64,000 nucleotides of DNA from an uncultured Clostridiaceae bacterium. GTDB lineage: Bacteria > Bacillota > Clostridia > TANB77 > CAG-508. The DNA is taken from assembly GCA_947167695.1 (NCBI GenBank), contig CAMVIX010000001.1:8680-72679 (forward strand), given 5' to 3'. Under the pieces are notes generated by a model. The model made no database searches. It was not told where the DNA came from and saw only the letters and a list, made by a program, of their open reading frames with translations. How positions within the stretch are numbered: position 1 is the stretch's first letter; the number at the start of each line of letters is the position of its first letter. Position numbers and translations under genes: made by a program. This document shows, piece after piece, positions 6,494 through 47,822 of this stretch.

Positions 6494-6522
6494 TTGCAAC
6501 TATTTTACTCTTATGCTAAAAT
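6494..6522 (+). promoter_or_regulatory. Candidate promoter TTGCAA-N17-TAAAAT upstream of the NRPS
   Basis: Sequence match only; a second TGACATAAT extended -10 lies at 6533-6541. Confidence 0.35.
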
Positions 6523-6562
6523 AAACTTGAATTTTGACATAATATGTTTAAAGGTGATAAAA

Positions 6563-9500
6563 ATGGTGAAACAGTATTATAAATTAACCAACCCTCAAAA
6601 CTCAATTTGGCAGACCTGTCAGGTATTTCCTAATACATCTATTGGGAATATTTGTGGGACTGTTTTTATAGACGAGAAAATAGATTTTTCAGCTTTAGAA
6701 AAATCCATCAATAAATTTATAGAAAAAAATGATAGTTTTCGTTTAAAAATTGTAATTAACGGAGATGGTCCTAAACAATATGTAAGTAATTTTGTGCCTT
6801 TTAACATTGAAGTTAAAAAAATAGAGTCCGTAGAAGATGTATCAAAGCTGGAAAAGGCTTTAGTTTCATGCCCTTTTTCAGTAGTAGATAATCTTCTTTT
6901 TACGTTTGTAATGTTCGAATTTCCAAATGGTGAAGGTGGTTTTATTATGAATGCACACCACCTTATCGTTGATGCTTGGACTGTTGGTACTGCTCTTAAC
7001 GGAATTATTGAACATTATGAATATTTTACTGATAAACGCAAAGACGTTTCTGAAAGCTATCCATCATATGTTGACTTTATTAATTCTGAAAAAGAATATC
7101 TTGAAAGTGAAAAATATAATAAAGATAAAGAATATTGGGAAAACGCGTTTAAGCAAATTCCAGAATGTGCAACAATTACTGGTTCAAAACAGTCTATAAG
7201 CAATTCCTGCGAAGCTAAAAGAATGGAATTTAATGTATCTAAAAAATATGTTGAAAAAATTAATGAATATTGCAAAGAAAACAAAGCCTCTTTGTATACA
7301 TTCTTCATGGCTGTATATGGATTATATATTAATCGTGTGTCAGCATTAGACGATTTCACTATTGGCACACCTATTTTAAATAGAACCAATTTCAAAGAAA
7401 AACATACTACTGGAATGTTTGTAAGCACAGTTCCTTTTAAATACAATATAAAAAGTGATATAAGCTTTTCAGAATATCTCACTTACATAACTACAACCTC
7501 CCTGGGAATGCTTAGGCATCAAAAATATCCATATTCTCATTTGCTAGCAGGCTTAAGAGAAACAGATTCATCTATTCCTAACTTGTATGATGTTGCTATA
7601 TCATACCAAAATATTAGAAGTAATAAGCAAACAGCAAAAGTAAAATATCACACAAAATGGAACTTTAATAATTGTTTAGCCGATAACTTAAATGTACACA
7701 TATATGACACAGATGATACTGGAAGCCTTGATATTGCTTACGATTATAGAACTTCTATATATAGTGAAAATGATATTTCTATGCTTCACAAAAGAATTTT
7801 AAATTTAATCGAGCAAATTATAGAAGAGCAAAATACAAAACTTAGCGAACTTGAAATTGTTACACCTGATGAAAAAAATTCAATTCTACATGAATTTAAC
7901 AATACAAAACTTGACTATCCAAAAGGTAAAACGATAGTAGAACTTTTTGAGAATCAAGTAGAAAAAACTCCGAACAATATTGCTGTTGTGTTTGAAAATA
8001 AGCAATTAACATATGAAGAATTAAATAAAAAAGTAAATAGCTTAGCTCATTATCTAACAAAAACTGGTGTAAAGCAATATGATATTGTTCCTGTAATGAT
8101 AGATAGGTCTGCGGATTTAATCATTTCTATGCTCGCTATTATTAAAATAGGTGCAGTTTATTTACCAATATCACCAGAAGTGCCAGAAGAAAGGGCTTCT
8201 TATATAATTCGAAATAGCAAAGCAAACTATGTGTTGTCCCAAAAGGATCATCAATGGGGCAATGCAAAAACGGTAGTTATTACTAACGTTGATTATTCGA
8301 AATATAACAATAATAATCTAAATGTTGCAATAGACAATAAAGATAACTTGTACATCATATATACATCTGGAACTACCGGAAATCCTAAAGGGGTAAAAGT
8401 TAGTCATAATAATCTTGTAAACTTTGTATACAGTTTTAATTTTATATATGGAAATATAACCGACGAAGATAGACTTTTGGCATCTACAAATATTTCTTTT
8501 GATGTTAGTATTTTTGAGTGTTTTATGGCTTTATTAAATGGTGCCTCCCTTTACCTTTATGAAGAACCTAATATAAGTAACATATTTGACTATTGCAAAA
8601 ATATAATATCCAACGAAATAACTTTTGCATATATTGCACCTAATATTTTAGATCTTGTTTATAATGTTTTATCGAAAGAAAAAGATGTTAAATTAAATAA
8701 GCTTTTATTGGGTGTAGAACCAATACCATCAAATATTATAAAAAAATATTATTCTTTGAACCCAAATTTTAAAATAGTTAATGCTTATGGACCAACTGAA
8801 ACAACTATATGTGCAACAGCAATTTTATTAAATAAAGATATTTTAAATAGTTATGACATTGTGCCAATAGGAAAACCACTCAATAATTTAAACATATTAA
8901 TTTTGGACAAATTTATGAAATTAGCTCCAGTTGGTGTTCCAGGAGAAATATATATTGCTGGAGATAACGTTTCAAATGGCTATTTAAATAACGAAGAACT
9001 TACTGCCAAATCATTTGTATCAATCCCAACACTTGGTATTGATAGGGCTTATAAAACAGGAGACATTGCAAAATGGGATTATGACGGTATTATAAGCTTT
9101 ATTGGAAGAAATGATAATCAAGTTAAAATCAATGGCCATAGAATTGAGCTAGGCGAGATTGAGGCTTTAATTGCAAAGTTTCCAACAATTAAAAAGGTAA
9201 CTGTAATAAAACAAACCATAAATAAAAGGGACTGTTTATGTGCCTATTACATTTCAGAAGAAAAAGATATTACCAATAATCTTAAAAAATATCTTTCTGG
9301 GTATCTGCCAAAATATATGATGCCTTCATATTATGTTGCTTTAGATAATTTTCCATGCACAGCTAATGGCAAAATTGATAGAAAAAAACTACCACTGCCG
9401 GAAATTATAATGGAAAATAAGGAAATAGTTTTGCCTAGAAATGAAATAGATAGTAAATTAATCGATATATTTAAGAATGTTTTAGGCATAAATGCAATAA

Positions 9501-30929: not shown

Positions 30930-31985
30930 ATGAGAAAAGGTATTGTAGAGAATGAAAACTCACAGTATAAAATTATAGCCGTTGATGATGACCCAGGTGT
31001 AATTGATACTCTATCTGTGTTTTTAAGGCGTTCTGGCTATAATTTAACTGGTCTTACAAATCCAGTAGAAGCTGTAGAAAAAATCAAAAACGAGCATTTC
31101 GATTTACTTATTCTAGATTTTATAATGACTCCTATTCATGGTGATGCCGTTGTTGAAGAGATACGAAAGTTTAATAAAGATTTATATATATTGTTACTTA
31201 CAGGTCATAAAGATTTAGCTCCACCACTTGAAACTATTCGCAGGCTTGATATTCAAGGTTACTGTGAAAAAAGCGATAAACAAGATCAACTATTACTTTT
31301 AATTGAATCTGGAATTAAATCTATTGAACAAATGAATACAATAAAGAAAATAAATGAAGAATTAAGCGATACCTATGAAAAACTTGAAAAAGCTTATATG
31401 GAAAGTATTGAAACACTTCGCCAAACTGTTGAAGCAAAAGATGTTTATACAAGAGGTCATTCAGACCGTGTTTCTGCTTTTTCAGTTTTAATTGGAGAAA
31501 AATTAGGTCTTTCTGAAAGTGATTTAAGGATATTACGTATTGGCGGATTGTTCCATGATATTGGCAAAATTGGTGTGCCAGATGCTATTTTACTTAAAGA
31601 TGCAAAACTTTCTGATGATGAATACTCACAAATAAAAAATCACCCATCAATTGGTGCACACATATTATCAAATGCAAGTATATTTGCCGATATGATACCA
31701 ATTGTTCTTCATCACCATGAAAGATATGATGGAAACGGCTATCCTTCTAAATTAAAAGGAGAAGAGATTCCATATTTAGCAAGAATTGCTGCAGTTGCAG
31801 ATACGTTTGATGCTATGACTTCTGTTAGACCATACAGAACAGCTCTTCCAATTGAAGTTGTTAAGGAAGAATTTAGAAGGTGTAGCGGAACACAATTTGA
31901 TCCTGAAATTGCAAAGGTGTTTTTGGAAATTTTGGAAAATGAATTTAATAAAATAAAAGAGATTCAAGAAAAATTTAGTGCATAA
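30930..31985 (+). CDS. Response regulator, REC + HD-GYP phosphodiesterase (RpfG-like)
   Basis: REC domain (IIAVDDDP...LLILD) followed by HD...HHHERYDGNGYP. Confidence 0.8.
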   Translation: MRKGIVENENSQYKIIAVDDDPGVIDTLSVFLRRSGYNLTGLTNPVEAVEKIKNEHFDLLILDFIMTPIHGDAVVEEIRKFNKDLYILLLTGHKDLAPPLETIRRLDIQGYCEKSDKQDQLLLLIESGIKSIEQMNTIKKINEELSDTYEKLEKAYMESIETLRQTVEAKDVYTRGHSDRVSAFSVLIGEKLGLSESDLRILRIGGLFHDIGKIGVPDAILLKDAKLSDDEYSQIKNHPSIGAHILSNASIFADMIPIVLHHHERYDGNGYPSKLKGEEIPYLARIAAVADTFDAMTSVRPYRTALPIEVVKEEFRRCSGTQFDPEIAKVFLEILENEFNKIKEIQEKFSA

Positions 31986-32012
31986 ATGTTGACGAAAATG
32001 AAACAAATATGA

Positions 32013-32058
32013 GCCAAAGGGGACAGTCTTCGCAAAGCGAAGACATGTCCCCTTTGGC
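32013..32058. repeat. GCCAAAGGGGACAGTCTTCGC-AAA-GCGAAGACATGTCCCCTTTGGC palindrome
   Basis: Near-perfect 21-bp stem between convergent genes. Related copies lie at 35149 and 62505. Confidence 0.55.
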
Positions 32059-32075
32059 TTACCTATTTTTTATTA

Positions 32076-34266
32076 TTACTTCATGCTCAGGCTTACTTTT
32101 TGTTTCTCCATATCTATTCCAATTACTTTCACTTTTACTATATCTCCTACAGAAACCACCTGCGATGGATGTTTTATGTAGCTGTCTGACATTTGGGATA
32201 TATGTACTAGCCCGTCATGTTTTACACCTACATCTACAAATGCTCCAAAATCTACTACATTTCGTACAGTCCCAGTAAGCTCCATACCCTCTTTTAAGTC
32301 TTCGAATTTTAACACATCTGATCGTAGTATTGGTTTTGGCATCTCTTCTCTTGGGTCTCTTCCTGGTTTTGAAATTTCTTCTAGTATATCTTTTAAGGTT
32401 AATTCGCCTATGTTTAACTCTTTTGATGTTTCTTTTAAATCTACACTTTTAACATTTTCTTTTATTTCTTTTAGTTTTTCTTTATCTAGTAAGTCCTGCT
32501 TGTTATAGCCTAACTTTTCCAATAACTTTTCTGTTGCCTCATAGCTTTCTGGATGCACTGCTGTTGTTTCTAATGGATTATCACCGTCCAAAAATTCTAA
32601 GGAATCCTGCGCACTGTTCAAATGCTGACTTTCCAAGCTTCGGTACTTTTAGCAATTCTTTCCTTTGTTTTAACTTTCCATTTTCATCACGGTATTTGAC
32701 TATGTTTTTTGCTATAGTGCCATTTATTCCTGAAACATATGATAATAATGAAGGAGTTGCTGTATTTACATCAACGCCTACCGAGTTTACAGCATCTTCT
32801 ACAACACCAGTTAAACTTTCTGATAATTTCTTTTGATTTACATCATGTTGATATTGCCCAACACCAATTGCCTTCGGGTCTATTTTTACAAGCTCTGCTA
32901 GCGGGTCTTGTAATCTTCTTGCAATTGATATTGCACCACGAATTGATACATTTATGTCTGGGTATTCTTCCGTTGCAAGCTTAGAAGCTGAATAAACAGA
33001 TGCTCCTGCTTCACTTACAATAGAGTAATATATTGTTTGTGGCATTTCTTTTATAAGGTCTGATACAAATTGTTCAGATTCACGCGAAGCTGTTCCATTG
33101 CCTATTGCAAACATTGTAACATGGTATTTGTTTATTAAGTCCTTTAAAACCTTTTTTGCGCCTTCTACATCATTTTGTGGCTCTGTTGGATATACTGTTG
33201 TATAGTCAAGTAGTTTTCCAGTTTCATCTATTACAGCTATTTTGCACCCTGTTCTATATGCAGGGTCAAACCCTATTACTGTTATTCCTTTAATTGGAGG
33301 TTGTAGTAATAATTGTTTCGCATTCTGCCCAAATACCTTTATTGCCTTTTCCTCTGCTCTTTCGGTTAATTCTGCTCTAATTTCTCTTTCTATGGATGGT
33401 TCAATTAATCTTTTGTAACTATCCTCAATTGTGTTTTCCAACATTGCTTCAAATTGTGTTTTTGGCTTTATTATCTTATATTTAATAAATCCTAAAATCT
33501 TTTCTTCTGGCTTTTCAAGTTTTACCTTTAAAAACTCCTCCGCTTCTCCACGGTTTATTGCTAAAATTCTATGGCTTGGTATATGCAAAATTGGTTCAGA
33601 ATAATCATAATACATTTCATATGCTGATTTTTCCTCTTTTGTTGCTTTGCTAGAAATAACAGCTTCTCTGAAACAAAGTGACTTTATTTTCTTCCTGAAA
33701 CTTGCATCATCTGAAATCATCTCAGCAATTATATCAAGCGCACCTGCAATTGCCTCTTCTGCAGATGTAACACTTTTTTCCTCACTTATATATTGCTTTG
33801 CTATTTCATAAATATCTTTTTTTTCTTGTTGCTCCCATATAATGATTGCAAGAGGTTCTAAACCTTTTGCCTTTGCTACTGTAGCTCTTGTTTTCTTTTT
33901 CTGTTTATATGGGCGGTAAAGATCTTCTAGCTCTGAAAGTATAGTTGCTTTTTCGATTTCTTCTTTTAATTCATCTGTTAATTTACCTTGTTCGTCTATT
34001 AATCTTAAAACCTCTTCTTTTCTTACTTCTAAATTTCTTAGATATGTAAGTCTTTCATCTAAATTTCTTAAGACCTCATCACTTAAGCCTCCTGTTACTT
34101 CCTTACGATATCTTGCAATAAATGGAATAGTATTTCCTTGGTCAATTAAATTTACCGCACTTTCAACTTGCTTTTTTCCCACATTTAACTCATTTGCTAT
34201 AATCTCTATAATATTCACTTTTTTTCTCCTTTGCTTTTTTTGATTAATTTTATCATAAGCTGTCAA
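32076..34266 (-). pseudogene. tex: Tex-like transcription accessory protein (YqgF/HhH/S1), +1 frameshift in a T5 run at ~32600
   Basis: ORF 32581..34266 carries the N-terminal, YqgF and HhH regions. ORF 32076..32636 carries the C-terminal S1 domain. The frames rejoin when one T is removed from GAATTTTTGG. Confidence 0.65.
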
Positions 34267-34380
34267 GTGAGTCCGTCCCCCATTGCCTCACAATTTATGA
34301 CAAATTTTGACAAAAGTATTGCAATTATAGAATATTTGAAATATAATATGCATAGTTATGAAAGGGGAGGTGTAACATTT

Positions 34381-35124
34381 ATGTTATCATCAGAAGTTAG
34401 AGCTGAGGCTCGTAAAAAATTAACAGGTAGATGGGGCAAAGCAGCATTACTTACACTTGGATATTTTCTTATATCTTTTGTAATAGGATTTGTTCAAGGA
34501 TTAATTCCAAAGTCAGCTACTGTAGTTGCTACTATAGTAAGTATAGCTGTTGCAATTATTGAAATTCCTTTGGCTTACGGTTTAATTATTTCTTATCTAA
34601 AATTCTTTAATGGAGAAGAAGTAAAACTATTTGATTTTCTATCAACAGGATTCAGTAATTTCGCAAGATCTTGGAAAGTAACTTTATGGGTTGTAGTTAA
34701 AATGCTAATTCCTGTAATTTTACTTGTTGTAGCTATCGTACTTGTTGCTGTTGGTACAGCTGGTTCTGCTGTTTCTATGTTTGATAAAGGTTCTTCAGGT
34801 GGTTTTGGAGTTCTTCTTGGAATTGCATTTGTTCTATACATAGTTGCTATAGTATGGTTAATTATTAAATCATATTCATATCAATTATCACAATTAGTTG
34901 CAATTGAAAACCCAGATATCACTGCAAAAGAATCTGTTGAAAGAAGTGCAGAATTAATGAAAGGAAGAAAAGGAAGATTGTTCTTCTTACAATTATCTTT
35001 CATTGGATGGGCTATCTTATCAGCATTAACATTTGGAATTGGCATGTTCTGGTTATTACCATACATTCAATTCGCAATGATTGTATTCTACAAAGATGCT
35101 TTAGGAAACGGAAAAACAGAATAA
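34381..35124 (+). CDS. DUF975-family membrane protein
   Basis: Glycine-zipper-like transmembrane helices. The start is taken at MLSSEVRAE with RBS GGGGAGGTG. Confidence 0.55.
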   Translation: MLSSEVRAEARKKLTGRWGKAALLTLGYFLISFVIGFVQGLIPKSATVVATIVSIAVAIIEIPLAYGLIISYLKFFNGEEVKLFDFLSTGFSNFARSWKVTLWVVVKMLIPVILLVVAIVLVAVGTAGSAVSMFDKGSSGGFGVLLGIAFVLYIVAIVWLIIKSYSYQLSQLVAIENPDITAKESVERSAELMKGRKGRLFFLQLSFIGWAILSALTFGIGMFWLLPYIQFAMIVFYKDALGNGKTE

Positions 35125-36840: not shown

Positions 36841-36927
36841 TTTTTGCCCCCTATTATTTTGATTTACAAGCAATATTGTAACATATTTTTCTTGCAAGAG
36901 CAATAGTTTCAAATTATGAAGCCAATA

Positions 36928-36978
36928 GGGACGCATTACTTTGGCTTAAAAAGTTTTTAAGCCAAAGTAATACGTCCC
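36928..36978. repeat. GGGACGCATTACTTTGGCTTAAAAAGTTTTTAAGCCAAAGTAATACGTCCC palindrome followed by a 3x CCATTGG direct repeat
   Basis: Perfect 23-bp stem. Confidence 0.5.
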
Positions 36979-37022
36979 CATTGGTTTCCCCATTGGCTTC
37001 ACATCCACATTGGTTTTTTTAT

Positions 37023-45330: not shown

Positions 45331-46332
45331 TCACTTACGGTTTATTAAATTAATAATTGCTTCTCCATGAAGATTTACCTTAGTATCTGGATATAATATT
45401 TTTCCTTGTTGTAGCTCTTCAATCGTTTTAGGCTTTATTTCAACTAGTGTATCTAATTCCTTATCCGAAAAAACATAATGCAAAGGTATACCCTTTTCGT
45501 TTGCTCTGTTGTTTCTAAATTTAATTAAGCATTCTCTTAGCTTTTCGTCATTCATTCTTATTGTATTATTTATGTATTTATTCTTAAATATTTCATAATA
45601 GTCATAATTTCTCTCAATGCTTTCGCTTAAAAACATATTAGCCCAAGATTCTATTTCGCTTTTCGGTGACCATAGACTTTTATCTGAATGATCAATATCA
45701 TATTGTATTTTCCTTATCAAAGCATCAGCTCTAATAATTTTATCTTTTATGTCATTTGGTGCATGCTTAGTATCAATAATAGTATCTGAATTAGCAGCCA
45801 CTACAAGTATCCTGTGCTGTGAATCAAAATTTCTATTTCCTAATATTTTAGTTAGTCCATTTATAATCTTATTATTAGTAAATGTAAACGTATCCCAAAG
45901 TTTCTTATACACAATTCTTTGCGCTTCTACCTGCCTTATAGGAGAATCCATACCTTTTCTTATTTTTCTTCCATTTACAGAATACTCCCTAATAAAATTG
46001 CCATTACTATCTACAGTAATATTTCCAACCAAATTCTTACACTCAATAAAATAGCAATGTGCTTTAGTTACTACAATATAATCTACTTGAGCATTTAAGT
46101 CATTATATTGAAAATTAATATCGTGTAAAACATACATTCCAATATTTGCTTTAGATAATTGATATTTTATCTCTTTTTCCCCTTCAATTCCTTTTTTTAT
46201 GAAATATAATTCTTCCTCAATTTGCTTATTGTTTGGGTATTCTTGATTGAGTTTAGTCAAAGCTTCATATTGTTTTTCTAAATTAGAATCGTCTTTTAGA
46301 AAAATTGTGTCGGTAAATTTATTAAATAGCAT
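45331..46332 (-). CDS. NERD-domain protein with a C-terminal HRDC-like helical module
   Basis: NERD core (EIKYQLSK...DYIVVTKAHCYFIECKN) plus a C-terminal IPLHYVFSDKELDTLVEIKPKTIEEL. Confidence 0.55.
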   Translation of the reverse strand: MLFNKFTDTIFLKDDSNLEKQYEALTKLNQEYPNNKQIEEELYFIKKGIEGEKEIKYQLSKANIGMYVLHDINFQYNDLNAQVDYIVVTKAHCYFIECKNLVGNITVDSNGNFIREYSVNGRKIRKGMDSPIRQVEAQRIVYKKLWDTFTFTNNKIINGLTKILGNRNFDSQHRILVVAANSDTIIDTKHAPNDIKDKIIRADALIRKIQYDIDHSDKSLWSPKSEIESWANMFLSESIERNYDYYEIFKNKYINNTIRMNDEKLRECLIKFRNNRANEKGIPLHYVFSDKELDTLVEIKPKTIEELQQGKILYPDTKVNLHGEAIINLINRK

Positions 46333-46486
46333 ATGAAGGTCTCCTTTCGTTCTAGTATTAATGCCATTATAACATAAAAAAGTGTGTTAATGAAATAATT
46401 TGATATATGACTATAAGAAATGTAAAAAAATCGTGTATAATACTATACACGATTACTTATATAATTCAGTAAAAGTTGTTATTTTC

Positions 46487-46625
46487 TTAAAACATTTTGC
46501 CAAATCTCTCCGTCCTATTGGCAACAAAAATGTGGTTCCAAATATGAACCACATTCTTTATTATTTATTCTATTATATTACCAGATTTTTATTACCAAAA
46601 TCCTCCGTCACTATTGGCAGCCTAA
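46487..46625 (+). repeat. Two copies of the motif CAAA(A/T)(T/C)CTCCGTC(C/A)CTATTGGCA downstream of the GNAT module
   Basis: Copies at 46497-46523 and 46596-46620, in the same orientation as the copies at 47583-47775. Confidence 0.5.
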
Positions 46626-46635
46626 TGGTATGAGA

Positions 46636-47253
46636 TTATTCTTTTTTACTTAAATCGCAAAGCATTTGTAGCAAATACTCGCCTGAATTTGTTTTTCTTT
46701 CATCTCTTTCTAAGCTTCTTTTACCGAAGCAAACAAATCCATTGCTTTCATAGAACTGTTTTAATTCTGGTTTATCCTCACACTCTAGGAAAACAAATCT
46801 GCCTCCTAATATATCTTGAGCTTCTCTAATTTTATCGCAAGCCAATTTTAAAAGGTAATCTCCACTAATTAGACTATTATAACCATTAGAATAATTCTTT
46901 CCAAGTTGTCCTATTAGTGGTAAAGCTATATCATAACTTCTTGATTCGCTATTATATTTTGCATATTTTAGAATCTGTTTTCTTTTTGTGTTACTTAATA
47001 AAACTCTTCTAATTTTTGTTACTTTATTAGTAATAGCAAAATATCCAACAATAACGTTCTTTTGTTTGTATGATGTTACAATTACAAATGTCTCTGCTAT
47101 ATCTTGCTTAGAAAATTCTATAGCCTTGTTTTGTATAAAGTCTTCGACATCTTTATTTATATCACACTTAAAATTTTTTAATAATTCTTTAGTATCATTC
47201 TCTCCCAAAACATTATAGATATCTTTTAAATTTATTACTTTATATCCTTGCAT
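46636..47253 (-). CDS. GNAT-fold acetyltransferase, candidate toxin of a two-gene module
   Basis: GNAT motif A (LIGQLGKN) and a C-terminal KQFYESNGFVCFG bulge region. Its start abuts the stop of the 60-aa upstream gene. Confidence 0.5.
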   Translation of the reverse strand: MQGYKVINLKDIYNVLGENDTKELLKNFKCDINKDVEDFIQNKAIEFSKQDIAETFVIVTSYKQKNVIVGYFAITNKVTKIRRVLLSNTKRKQILKYAKYNSESRSYDIALPLIGQLGKNYSNGYNSLISGDYLLKLACDKIREAQDILGGRFVFLECEDKPELKQFYESNGFVCFGKRSLERDERKTNSGEYLLQMLCDLSKKE

Positions 47254-47436
47254 TTATTTACTGAAAATTTCCCTAATTCTTTCACTATCTTTTATTGTCT
47301 CAACAGCTTTCCCTGATTGTACACTCTTTCTACTTTTTCCTTCTGCATTTTCTAAAGCATTGATAAAAGAATTAGCTGCTGTTTTACTTTTTATTGTAAT
47401 ATTCTTCATAAAACTCTTTGTGGCCATCCTCATCAT
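47254..47436 (-). CDS. 60-aa protein, candidate antitoxin partner
   Basis: Small, hydrophilic and lysine-rich. It is translationally coupled to the GNAT gene (stop at 47254, next start at 47253). Confidence 0.4.
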   Translation of the reverse strand: MMRMATKSFMKNITIKSKTAANSFINALENAEGKSRKSVQSGKAVETIKDSERIREIFSK

Positions 47437-47582
47437 CTCCTACTTTATAATATGAAATATCTATAATATTATACCACAATTTTATGTAAATTTCAATTTA
47501 AAAACTTTATATATTTACTGTTTAAAACTTTCAATACATAGGCTTACTAATTATAAATGTGGTACATATATATTATATACAC

Positions 47583-47775
47583 TTCTTTTTAAAAAGTTTG
47601 TCAAATTCTGTCGAAAGCTTTAAATTATTTTTCCGCATTTCACTCCATCCCTATTGGCATTATATAAATATAGTTAATATTATATACATTTTTTGTAAAA
47701 ATCTTGTCAAATCTTGCTGAAATTCTTAAATTATTTTTCTGTCAAAATTCTCCGTCCCTAATGGCATATCATACT
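47583..47775 (+). repeat. Two tandem ~109-bp repeat units (~85% identical) ending in CTCC(A/G)TCCCTA(T/A)TGGCA
   Basis: Unit 1 spans 47590-47665 and unit 2 spans 47697-47775. Each begins TTGTCAAAT...TTAAATTATTTTTC. Confidence 0.55.
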
Positions 47776-47822
47776 TGCTCTGTCCCTATTAGTACTTACC
47801 TTGTAGTACTTATCTTTTTTTC

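Follow-up and report, generated by a model that had tools for sequence, protein, structure and literature searches.

Do the short direct repeats on both sides of a toxin-antitoxin (TA)-like gene pair regulate that pair, do they mark the ends of a piece of DNA that strains gain or lose, or are they unrelated to it? This question is raised by positions 46,487 to 47,775 of a 64,000-nucleotide stretch of DNA from an uncultured Clostridiaceae bacterium (contig CAMVIX010000001.1), which as a whole is called the window here. An earlier reading of the letters alone (the original prediction) had described there a small gene followed by a gene for a 205-aa GNAT-fold acetyltransferase, together with copies of a 17-nt sequence (the 17-mer) proposed to be either operators for the small protein or borders of an inserted cassette. 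Our analysis indicates that two independent things are probably superimposed at this locus: a mobile TA-like operon, and a dispersed element that bounds a 1,241-bp variable segment as a border or recombination substrate and not as an operator.

The gene pair and its promoter

The list of open reading frames (ORFs) showed that the gene pair is present on the minus strand, as a two-gene operon of about 870 bp (46630–47497). Its features are as follows.

46636..47253, minus strand, gene of the 205-aa GNAT toxin-like acetyltransferase (ORF, AlphaFold2 model, Foldseek, HHalign, phrog_1758)
47254..47427, minus strand, gene of the 57-aa partner, a putative antitoxin (the ORF reaches 47436; AGGAG, P0121, phrog_3291)
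47428..47496, minus strand, module promoter and 5' untranslated region (UTR), where autoregulation, if there is any, is likely to act (match to 11/12 of the consensus, plus TG; conservation)

A 60-codon ORF (47254–47436) directly precedes the 205-codon ORF (46636–47253), and the stop codon of the first is followed at once by the start codon of the second (TAA/ATG, gap 0 nt). Thus the pair stands as it had been described, while the 1-nt overlap and the 60-aa length of the small protein do not. Its start is the fourth codon, the ATG at 47427, because AGGAG lies 9 nt upstream, the homologues all begin with MATKSF and the identical database protein P0121 has 57 aa. Across six loci, the intergenic gap ranged from −1 to +4 nt.

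The module has a strong promoter of its own, with TTGAAA at 47496–47491, a 17-nt spacer and TGnTATAAT at 47473–47468 (11/12 consensus match plus TG). We compared positions 47428–47496 with the corresponding stretches of four other loci (L003, L136, L140, and L147). The gut copies were 80–93% identical over the 70 nt that lead from the −35 box up to the start codon and 71–83% identical in the coding sequence, the former being at least as conserved as the latter. This conservation suggests a regulatory site or an RNA structure. A candidate operator, if there is any, is likely to be located in this promoter/5' UTR stretch and not in the repeats.

The acetyltransferase

The GNAT signal of the 205-aa protein was weak in Pfam (Acetyltransf_10, E = 0.016, below threshold), and a Pfam GNAT model touched only one of 38 diverse family members. 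Searches of NCBIfam, PADLOC and PDB sequences gave no match, and exact look-ups of the window's own proteins returned no record. The protein matched phrog_1758 (E = 3e-46), more than 1,157 close homologues were found in gut metagenomes, and the family comprises 2,063 cluster representatives at 50% identity.

An AlphaFold2 model of medium quality (pLDDT 70) was compared with the PDB by Foldseek. The top 34 matches were all type II TA GNAT toxins, namely AtaT, KacT, AtaT2, GmvT and TacT1-3 (best E = 5.6e-8, TM 0.5–0.74), and ordinary GNATs ranked only after them. As an independent check, four plasmid GNAT toxins adjoining annotated DUF1778 genes were aligned and compared with the family profile to profile by HHalign, which gave a probability of 96.8% (E = 2.8e-10, 132 columns). 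The aligned motifs were the N-terminal F..C...(E/D)(F/W)L..KA, VIGYY with VGYF, LGRLAVD with LIGQLGKN, and FY..GF with FY..NGF. Y168 of the FY..GF motif was invariant, even in members only 30–50% identical to the window protein, and its counterpart in TacT is Y140. E157, Q116 and N120 were likewise invariant across members down to 30% identity. Y168 also aligned with the tyrosine mutated in the structures entitled 'AtaT Y144F' and 'KacT Y145F' (PDB entry titles). The enzyme carries an insertion at about residues 86–107.

Profile comparison and predicted fold together show the 205-aa enzyme to be a distant homologue of the tRNA-acetylating type II TA toxins (TacT/AtaT/KacT), and the alignments show that a catalytic-type tyrosine is conserved in it. 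The GNAT fold assigned by the original prediction is therefore borne out by Foldseek and HHalign, in spite of the weak Pfam signal, and the comparison with AtaT, TacT and KacT that it had proposed places the protein closest to these toxins. It had also held that a match to a housekeeping N-acetyltransferase would speak against the idea; the enzyme is not of the housekeeping kind, for no NCBIfam match was seen, and the gene is carried on prophages, a conjugative element and plasmids.

The 57-aa partner

For the 57-aa protein, Pfam gave no match at E ≤ 1 (DUF4065 included), NCBIfam and PADLOC gave none, and PDB sequence and profile searches gave none that was significant. Its model is a helix-coil-helix for which no structural neighbour was found, and HHalign against a DUF1778 alignment yielded a probability of only 9%. 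A DUF1778/RHH antitoxin, the partner type that had been put forward for checking, is ruled out by these Pfam, PDB profile, fold and HHalign results. The protein matched phrog_3291 (E = 4e-11) and belongs to a conserved family of its own.

Distribution and mobility of the pair

The small gene lies upstream of the acetyltransferase gene in every context that could be read. The pair was found at prophage ends between an Amidase_2 endolysin and an integrase, next to a TraG/VirD4 coupling protein gene of a conjugative element, and beside YezG/GGGtGRT genes. It is p82/p83 of the C. difficile phage phiC2, with a 1-nt overlap. A distant copy on the conjugative A. baumannii plasmid pAbCTX5 (L146, 1846–2552) encodes a 58-aa protein starting with MATVSF and an acetyltransferase. 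Homologues of the acetyltransferase, for which the enzyme gene alone was read, were also found on satellite phages of Streptococcus and in phage and plasmid records of Staphylococcus. The closest relative locus (84% protein identity) has its own terminator after the toxin gene and no 17-mer.

Two side observations concern these copies. The acetyltransferase matched in 45 Acinetobacter plasmid records. In phiC2 (L145, NC_009231, 2307–3112), p83 is annotated from locus position 2534, a start that probably lies too far downstream; the complete ORF begins at locus position 2501 and overlaps the p82 stop codon by 1 nt.

These contexts show that the acetyltransferase is invariably accompanied by the small gene, whether on prophages, on conjugative elements or on plasmids. 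A bicistronic pair that is conserved and tightly coupled, has its own promoter and is spread on mobile elements is what generally characterises type II TA loci, and in its gene organisation the present pair is of this kind. The proposed GNAT-type type II TA arrangement thus fits the anatomy, and the larger protein is nearest specifically to the tRNA-acetylating toxins. The module is best read as a GNAT-type TA variant, that is, a predicted toxin homologue with a swapped, unrecognised antitoxin. The 205-aa enzyme would acetylate aminoacyl-tRNA and stop translation, and the 57-aa protein would bind and neutralise the enzyme and repress the conserved promoter/5' UTR. The pair would then act as an addiction or abortive-infection module.

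The repeat copies around the module

The four to five copies of the 17-mer that had been reported are there. On the plus strand, three matches to the degenerate core are exact (46603, 47643, and 47750), one copy has three mismatches (47778), and one has a 1-nt deletion (46508–46523). In the whole 64 kb, six matches with at most three mismatches were found versus an expectation of 0.40 ± 0.64, and 100 shuffles never gave as many. The 17-mer is the core of an approximately 27-nt palindrome-ended element, TGCCAATAGGGACGGAGnnTTTTGGCA, in which 6–7-bp inverted ends (TGCCAA/TTGGCA) enclose a conserved 15-nt asymmetric core. An nhmmer profile built from 21 copies gave four significant matches in the window, all between 46496 and 47767. 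The copies and the tandem units associated with them are as follows.

46498..46523, minus strand, element copy S1, canonical hairpin form with a 1-nt core deletion (−6.6 kcal/mol; nhmmer E = 8e-6)
46593..46619, minus strand, element copy S2, which begins 16 nt past the toxin stop codon (nhmmer E = 6e-8)
47633..47659, minus strand, element copy S3, core retained, stem lost (nhmmer E = 1.5e-4)
47740..47766, minus strand, element copy S4, in the alignment the counterpart of the only copy at the empty site described below (nhmmer E = 1e-8)
47768..47794, minus strand, degenerate element copy S5, beside a 14-nt tandem duplication (nhmmer E = 0.28)
47583..47739, minus strand, two diverged tandem units of about 106 nt (minus-strand read: TTGACA, 18–20 nt, TATATAAT, element copy)

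The tandem units, predicted at about 109 bp, are real in that two 51-nt stretches recur 106 nt apart; they are weak, with 78% identity, and the units of about 106 bp are too diverged for Tandem Repeats Finder to detect. Alignment points to a decayed array with units of about 95–107 bp (S1, 46487–46619; the S2 head joined to S0, 46603–46619 plus about 47545–47659; S3, 47643–47766), which the module interrupts just after a 17-mer. The tandem-unit region also shares a 19-nt identity with a promoter region in L147. As for the TTGTCA −35-like boxes that had been noted, the plus-strand TTGTCA-17-TAAATT combinations score 9/12, and promoter-like matches in the region are no more frequent than by chance (16 versus 11.2 ± 3.4 expected). 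The 14-nt tandem duplication beside S5 (TAGTACTTACCTTG ×1.9) is located at 47790–47816, just downstream of rmlB, and is absent from the empty-site contig.

The element beyond the module

Pattern scans found the element at unrelated intergenic sites in AT-rich metagenome-assembled genomes (MAGs) labelled 'uncultured Clostridium sp.' and in gut metagenome contigs. It occurs as single copies, as perfect inverted pairs (L132, with 29-bp arms, and L128) and as a nested array (L135). Two contigs of a single MAG have their last 55 nt in common, and this common stretch stops exactly at ...TGGCA. Read in the GGAG orientation, 13 of the 24 element instances follow a co-directional ORF, at a distance of no more than about 60 nt from its stop codon. 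Four of these ORFs stop inside the element, at TGC CAA TAG (...CQ*) in L129, L130 and L133 and at TGA in L062, which implies that the element inserted right at gene 3' ends. The canonical element folds at −6 to −9 kcal/mol, and most window copies have no stem.

The window itself holds a second locus.

36920..37008, strand not assigned, variant element, AAGCCAATAGGGACGCATTACTTTGGCTT, as an inverted pair that has a small membrane-protein gene on one side and the next promoter on the other

This pair forms a predicted hairpin of −56 kcal/mol (z = −13) and is accompanied by a partial third copy. In the variant, the end bases are altered on both sides relative to the main family and pairing is kept. 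The real start of the nearby gene lies about 90 nt downstream, and the match at 36920 is one half of the pair rather than a chance match within a coding start. On a related MAG contig (L077) that shares genes with window positions 30930–35124 (a response regulator with an HD domain, and DUF975), an element copy was seen in an intergenic region where the window shows none, which suggests presence/absence polymorphism of the element.

Other searches were negative. No match was found in Rfam for either strand of the repeat region, the viral contig collection contained no element copy, and a search of the literature for the 17-mer as a string brought up nothing but unrelated papers on C. elegans. 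Several further readings of the repeats were rejected. A unit of about 100 nt (element plus promoter-like part) moving as a whole is excluded by the finding that only the core of about 27 nt is common to other loci. A small RNA or CsrA-type decoy does not agree with a hairpin that is weak or lost in most window copies, and on inspection none of the sigma-54, Spo0A-box, dif/Xer and attC readings fits the motif. By its motif and its arrangements, the element is a REP (repetitive extragenic palindromic)-like dispersed repeat of a clostridial lineage: a short palindromic unit found as singles, inverted pairs and clusters.

Could the repeats nevertheless be operators through which the 57-aa protein or the complex regulates the module? 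Copies do stand on both sides of the operon, and two of them lie upstream near promoter-like sequences. However, 15 other module loci have the same promoter and none of them carries the 17-mer, even with three mismatches allowed. In other genomes the element is found beside unrelated genes, the window has it at a further place, the empty site keeps one copy without the module, and the non-coding DNA that is conserved is the promoter/5' UTR rather than the repeats. We therefore regard regulation through the repeats as highly implausible, and the operator role proposed for them is not sustained. A repeat unrelated to the module had been named as the outcome contradicting the original prediction, and this is what the unrelated loci in related genomes and the second window locus display.

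The empty site and the variable segment

A near-identical metagenome contig (L152) shows the same site without the module. Its NERD-HRDC gene is 99% identical to that of the window and its flanks are 97–99% identical. The order in L152 is the rmlB stop codon, a single degenerate element copy, TACTACTAGGGAAGGAGAATCATGACAG, the shared terminator and the NERD gene (L152:137–200). The features concerned are the following.

46494..47734, strand not assigned, strain-variable 1,241-bp segment absent from L152 (global alignment; boundaries ambiguous within the repeat)
46429..46454, minus strand, intrinsic terminator common to the empty site, upstream of the NERD-HRDC gene
46529..46555, strand not assigned, terminator-like G+C-containing hairpin with T-runs on both strands, inside the variable segment

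In the global alignment, the single copy of L152 pairs with S4 (47760–47735), and the sequence on its 3' side is matched by the 3' flank of S1. The variable segment begins right after one element copy and ends with another, and the internal copies split it into pieces of 95, 1,040 and 107 bp. A further 42 bp (47761–47802), holding S5 and the 14-nt duplication, are also absent from L152. Because the segment is missing in a near-identical strain that keeps a single copy at the site, gain or loss by recombination at the element is implied. Either integration at the element or deletion between direct copies would leave the two alleles seen. The idea that the repeats are borders of an inserted cassette is thus supported by the empty site, and the repeats are borders or recombination substrates, not operators.

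By analogy with the attC sites of integrons or the pdif sites of Acinetobacter, the 27-nt element might be the recombination site of a dedicated site-specific system that moves small cassettes to the 3' ends of operons. This would agree with a variable segment that starts immediately after the resident copy and ends with a copy, with the three cassette-like pieces, with element ends that are symmetric around an asymmetric core, and with the two contigs of one MAG that break exactly at the element end. On the other side, no recombinase or transposase was found among the ten window ORFs scanned, and the element does not match attC anatomy. Elsewhere, most element copies stand alone or in pairs between housekeeping genes and carry no cargo, the module copies at other loci are free of the element, and an ordinary direct-repeat deletion explains the empty site equally well. 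We consider a dedicated system improbable. A bolder proposal, in which the element would be the attachment site of an undescribed gut-Clostridia cassette system that shuffles self-expressed modules, here a new tRNA-acetylating toxin class with a new antitoxin, is a long shot. If true, such a system would serve Gram-positive bacteria as the functional counterpart of integron cassettes or pdif modules.

Weighing the toxin-antitoxin reading

Several results weigh against the reading of a mobile TA-like operon superimposed on a recombining element. The pLDDT of the enzyme model falls below 60 after residue 148. The acetyl-CoA loop, expected as Q/R-x-x-G-x-G/A, appears less canonical: the aligned segment is I-S-G, and only G131 is invariant. 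No DNA-binding or DUF1778 domain is detectable in the 57-aa partner by Pfam, fold or HHalign. PMC9177977 has noted that other functions are possible for such TA-like loci when they fall outside the 'true TA clade'. As for the element, the two strains alone fit insertion and deletion between direct repeats alike, and the scan of ten ORFs yielded neither recombinase nor transposase. A pattern with 14 specified bases gave mostly chance matches in the GTDB genomes, with four real loci among the matches listed.

The apparently diverged loop, the lack of a DUF1778/RHH antitoxin and the possible functional divergence outside the true TA clade (PMC9177977) would also agree with another explanation, in which the enzyme is a non-toxin accessory of phages and plasmids that modifies, for example, a small molecule, an antibiotic, or a host or phage protein, and the small gene encodes a regulator or chaperone. 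RefSeq/GenBank annotation likewise names it only as 'acetyltransferase' or 'GNAT family acetyltransferase'. However, the structural neighbours that rank ahead of other GNATs are exclusively TA toxins, and a pair that is obligatory, tightly coupled, driven by its own promoter and confined to mobile elements bears the TA signature. This explanation is therefore unlikely, though it deserves to be kept in mind, and the reading as a GNAT-type TA variant is preferred.

Neighbouring genes

The genes around the module are all on the minus strand. In the order of that strand, rmlD, rmlA, rmlC and rmlB (51148 to 47823) are followed by the gene pair and then by the NERD-HRDC gene (46332–45331), and past the latter come VanZ, a UDP-glucose dehydrogenase-like gene and a phosphoribosyl pyrophosphate (PRPP) synthetase-like gene. 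The names of rmlD, rmlA and rmlC and of the dehydrogenase-like and PRPP synthetase-like genes are taken from their translations; the dehydrogenase was also a Pfam match in the near-identical contig. The NERD-HRDC protein (45331–46332) belongs to a large conserved family with 1,509 homologues and has weak similarity to DpdF and RecQ C-termini. On the plus strand, the window also has an ORF of 2,509 aa at 6494–14023.

Comparison with known systems and significance

The nearest known systems are the GNAT-DUF1778 pairs TacAT, AtaRT, KacAT, GmvAT and ItaRT. Like them, the present module has a small upstream gene tightly coupled to the GNAT gene, the nearest fold and profile, the tyrosine of FY..GF and carriage on mobile elements. 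Unlike them, its partner is of the 57-aa phrog_3291 family with no DUF1778/RHH signal, and its enzyme has 205 aa versus 160–180 aa, with the insertion at about residues 86–107 and an apparently diverged acetyl-CoA loop. Moreover, no Pfam or NCBIfam model covers this family, which is abundant in Firmicutes phages. PMC9177977 defined the 'true TA clade' by its DUF1778 partner, documented one antitoxin swap (DUF4065), noted TA-like loci in which a short ORF of unknown role lies upstream, and reported GNAT toxin homologues to be almost absent from Firmicutes. The GNAT-DUF4065 and TA-like GNAT loci of that study resemble ours as relatives of GNAT toxins with a replaced antitoxin or a short upstream ORF without a recognisable DNA-binding domain. 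They differ in that the short ORF here is neither divergent nor DUF4065 and represents a conserved family which travels together with the enzyme from Clostridia to Acinetobacter.

For the element, the closest likeness is to REP sequences and bacterial interspersed mosaic elements (BIMEs) of Enterobacteria and Pseudomonas, which are also short, extragenic, multi-copy repeats with palindromic ends, lie just after genes as singles, inverted pairs and clusters, and are hotspots of rearrangement. In contrast to these, the stem of the element is only 6–7 bp around a strongly conserved 15-nt asymmetric core, the host is an AT-rich gut Clostridia lineage, and no REP-associated tyrosine transposase (RAYT) was identified for it among the ten window ORFs scanned. 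Chromosomal-integron TA cassettes and the pdif modules of Acinetobacter plasmids are alike in arrangement only: they, too, are strain-variable TA modules that have their own promoter and lie between short repeated sites. On inspection, the 27-nt element, whose ends are TGCCAA/TTGGCA, lacks the anatomy of attC (R''-L''...L'-R', GTTRRRY) or of Xer sites, and the ORFs scanned include no integrase.

The repeat represents a previously undescribed REP-like element of gut Clostridia, found in neither Rfam nor the searchable literature, and the clean pair of filled and empty sites shows that it marks sites of gene gain or loss. The acetyltransferase family, related to GNAT toxins in profile and predicted fold, comprises about 2,000 clusters at 50% identity and is carried on phages and satellites of C. 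difficile, Staphylococcus and Streptococcus and on plasmids of Acinetobacter. If the genes form a true TA pair, the 57-aa partner, which had been unannotated, would represent a new antitoxin class. The family would then be a large reservoir of clinical relevance for toxins that acetylate tRNA, and might play a part in maintaining prophages or in abortive infection.

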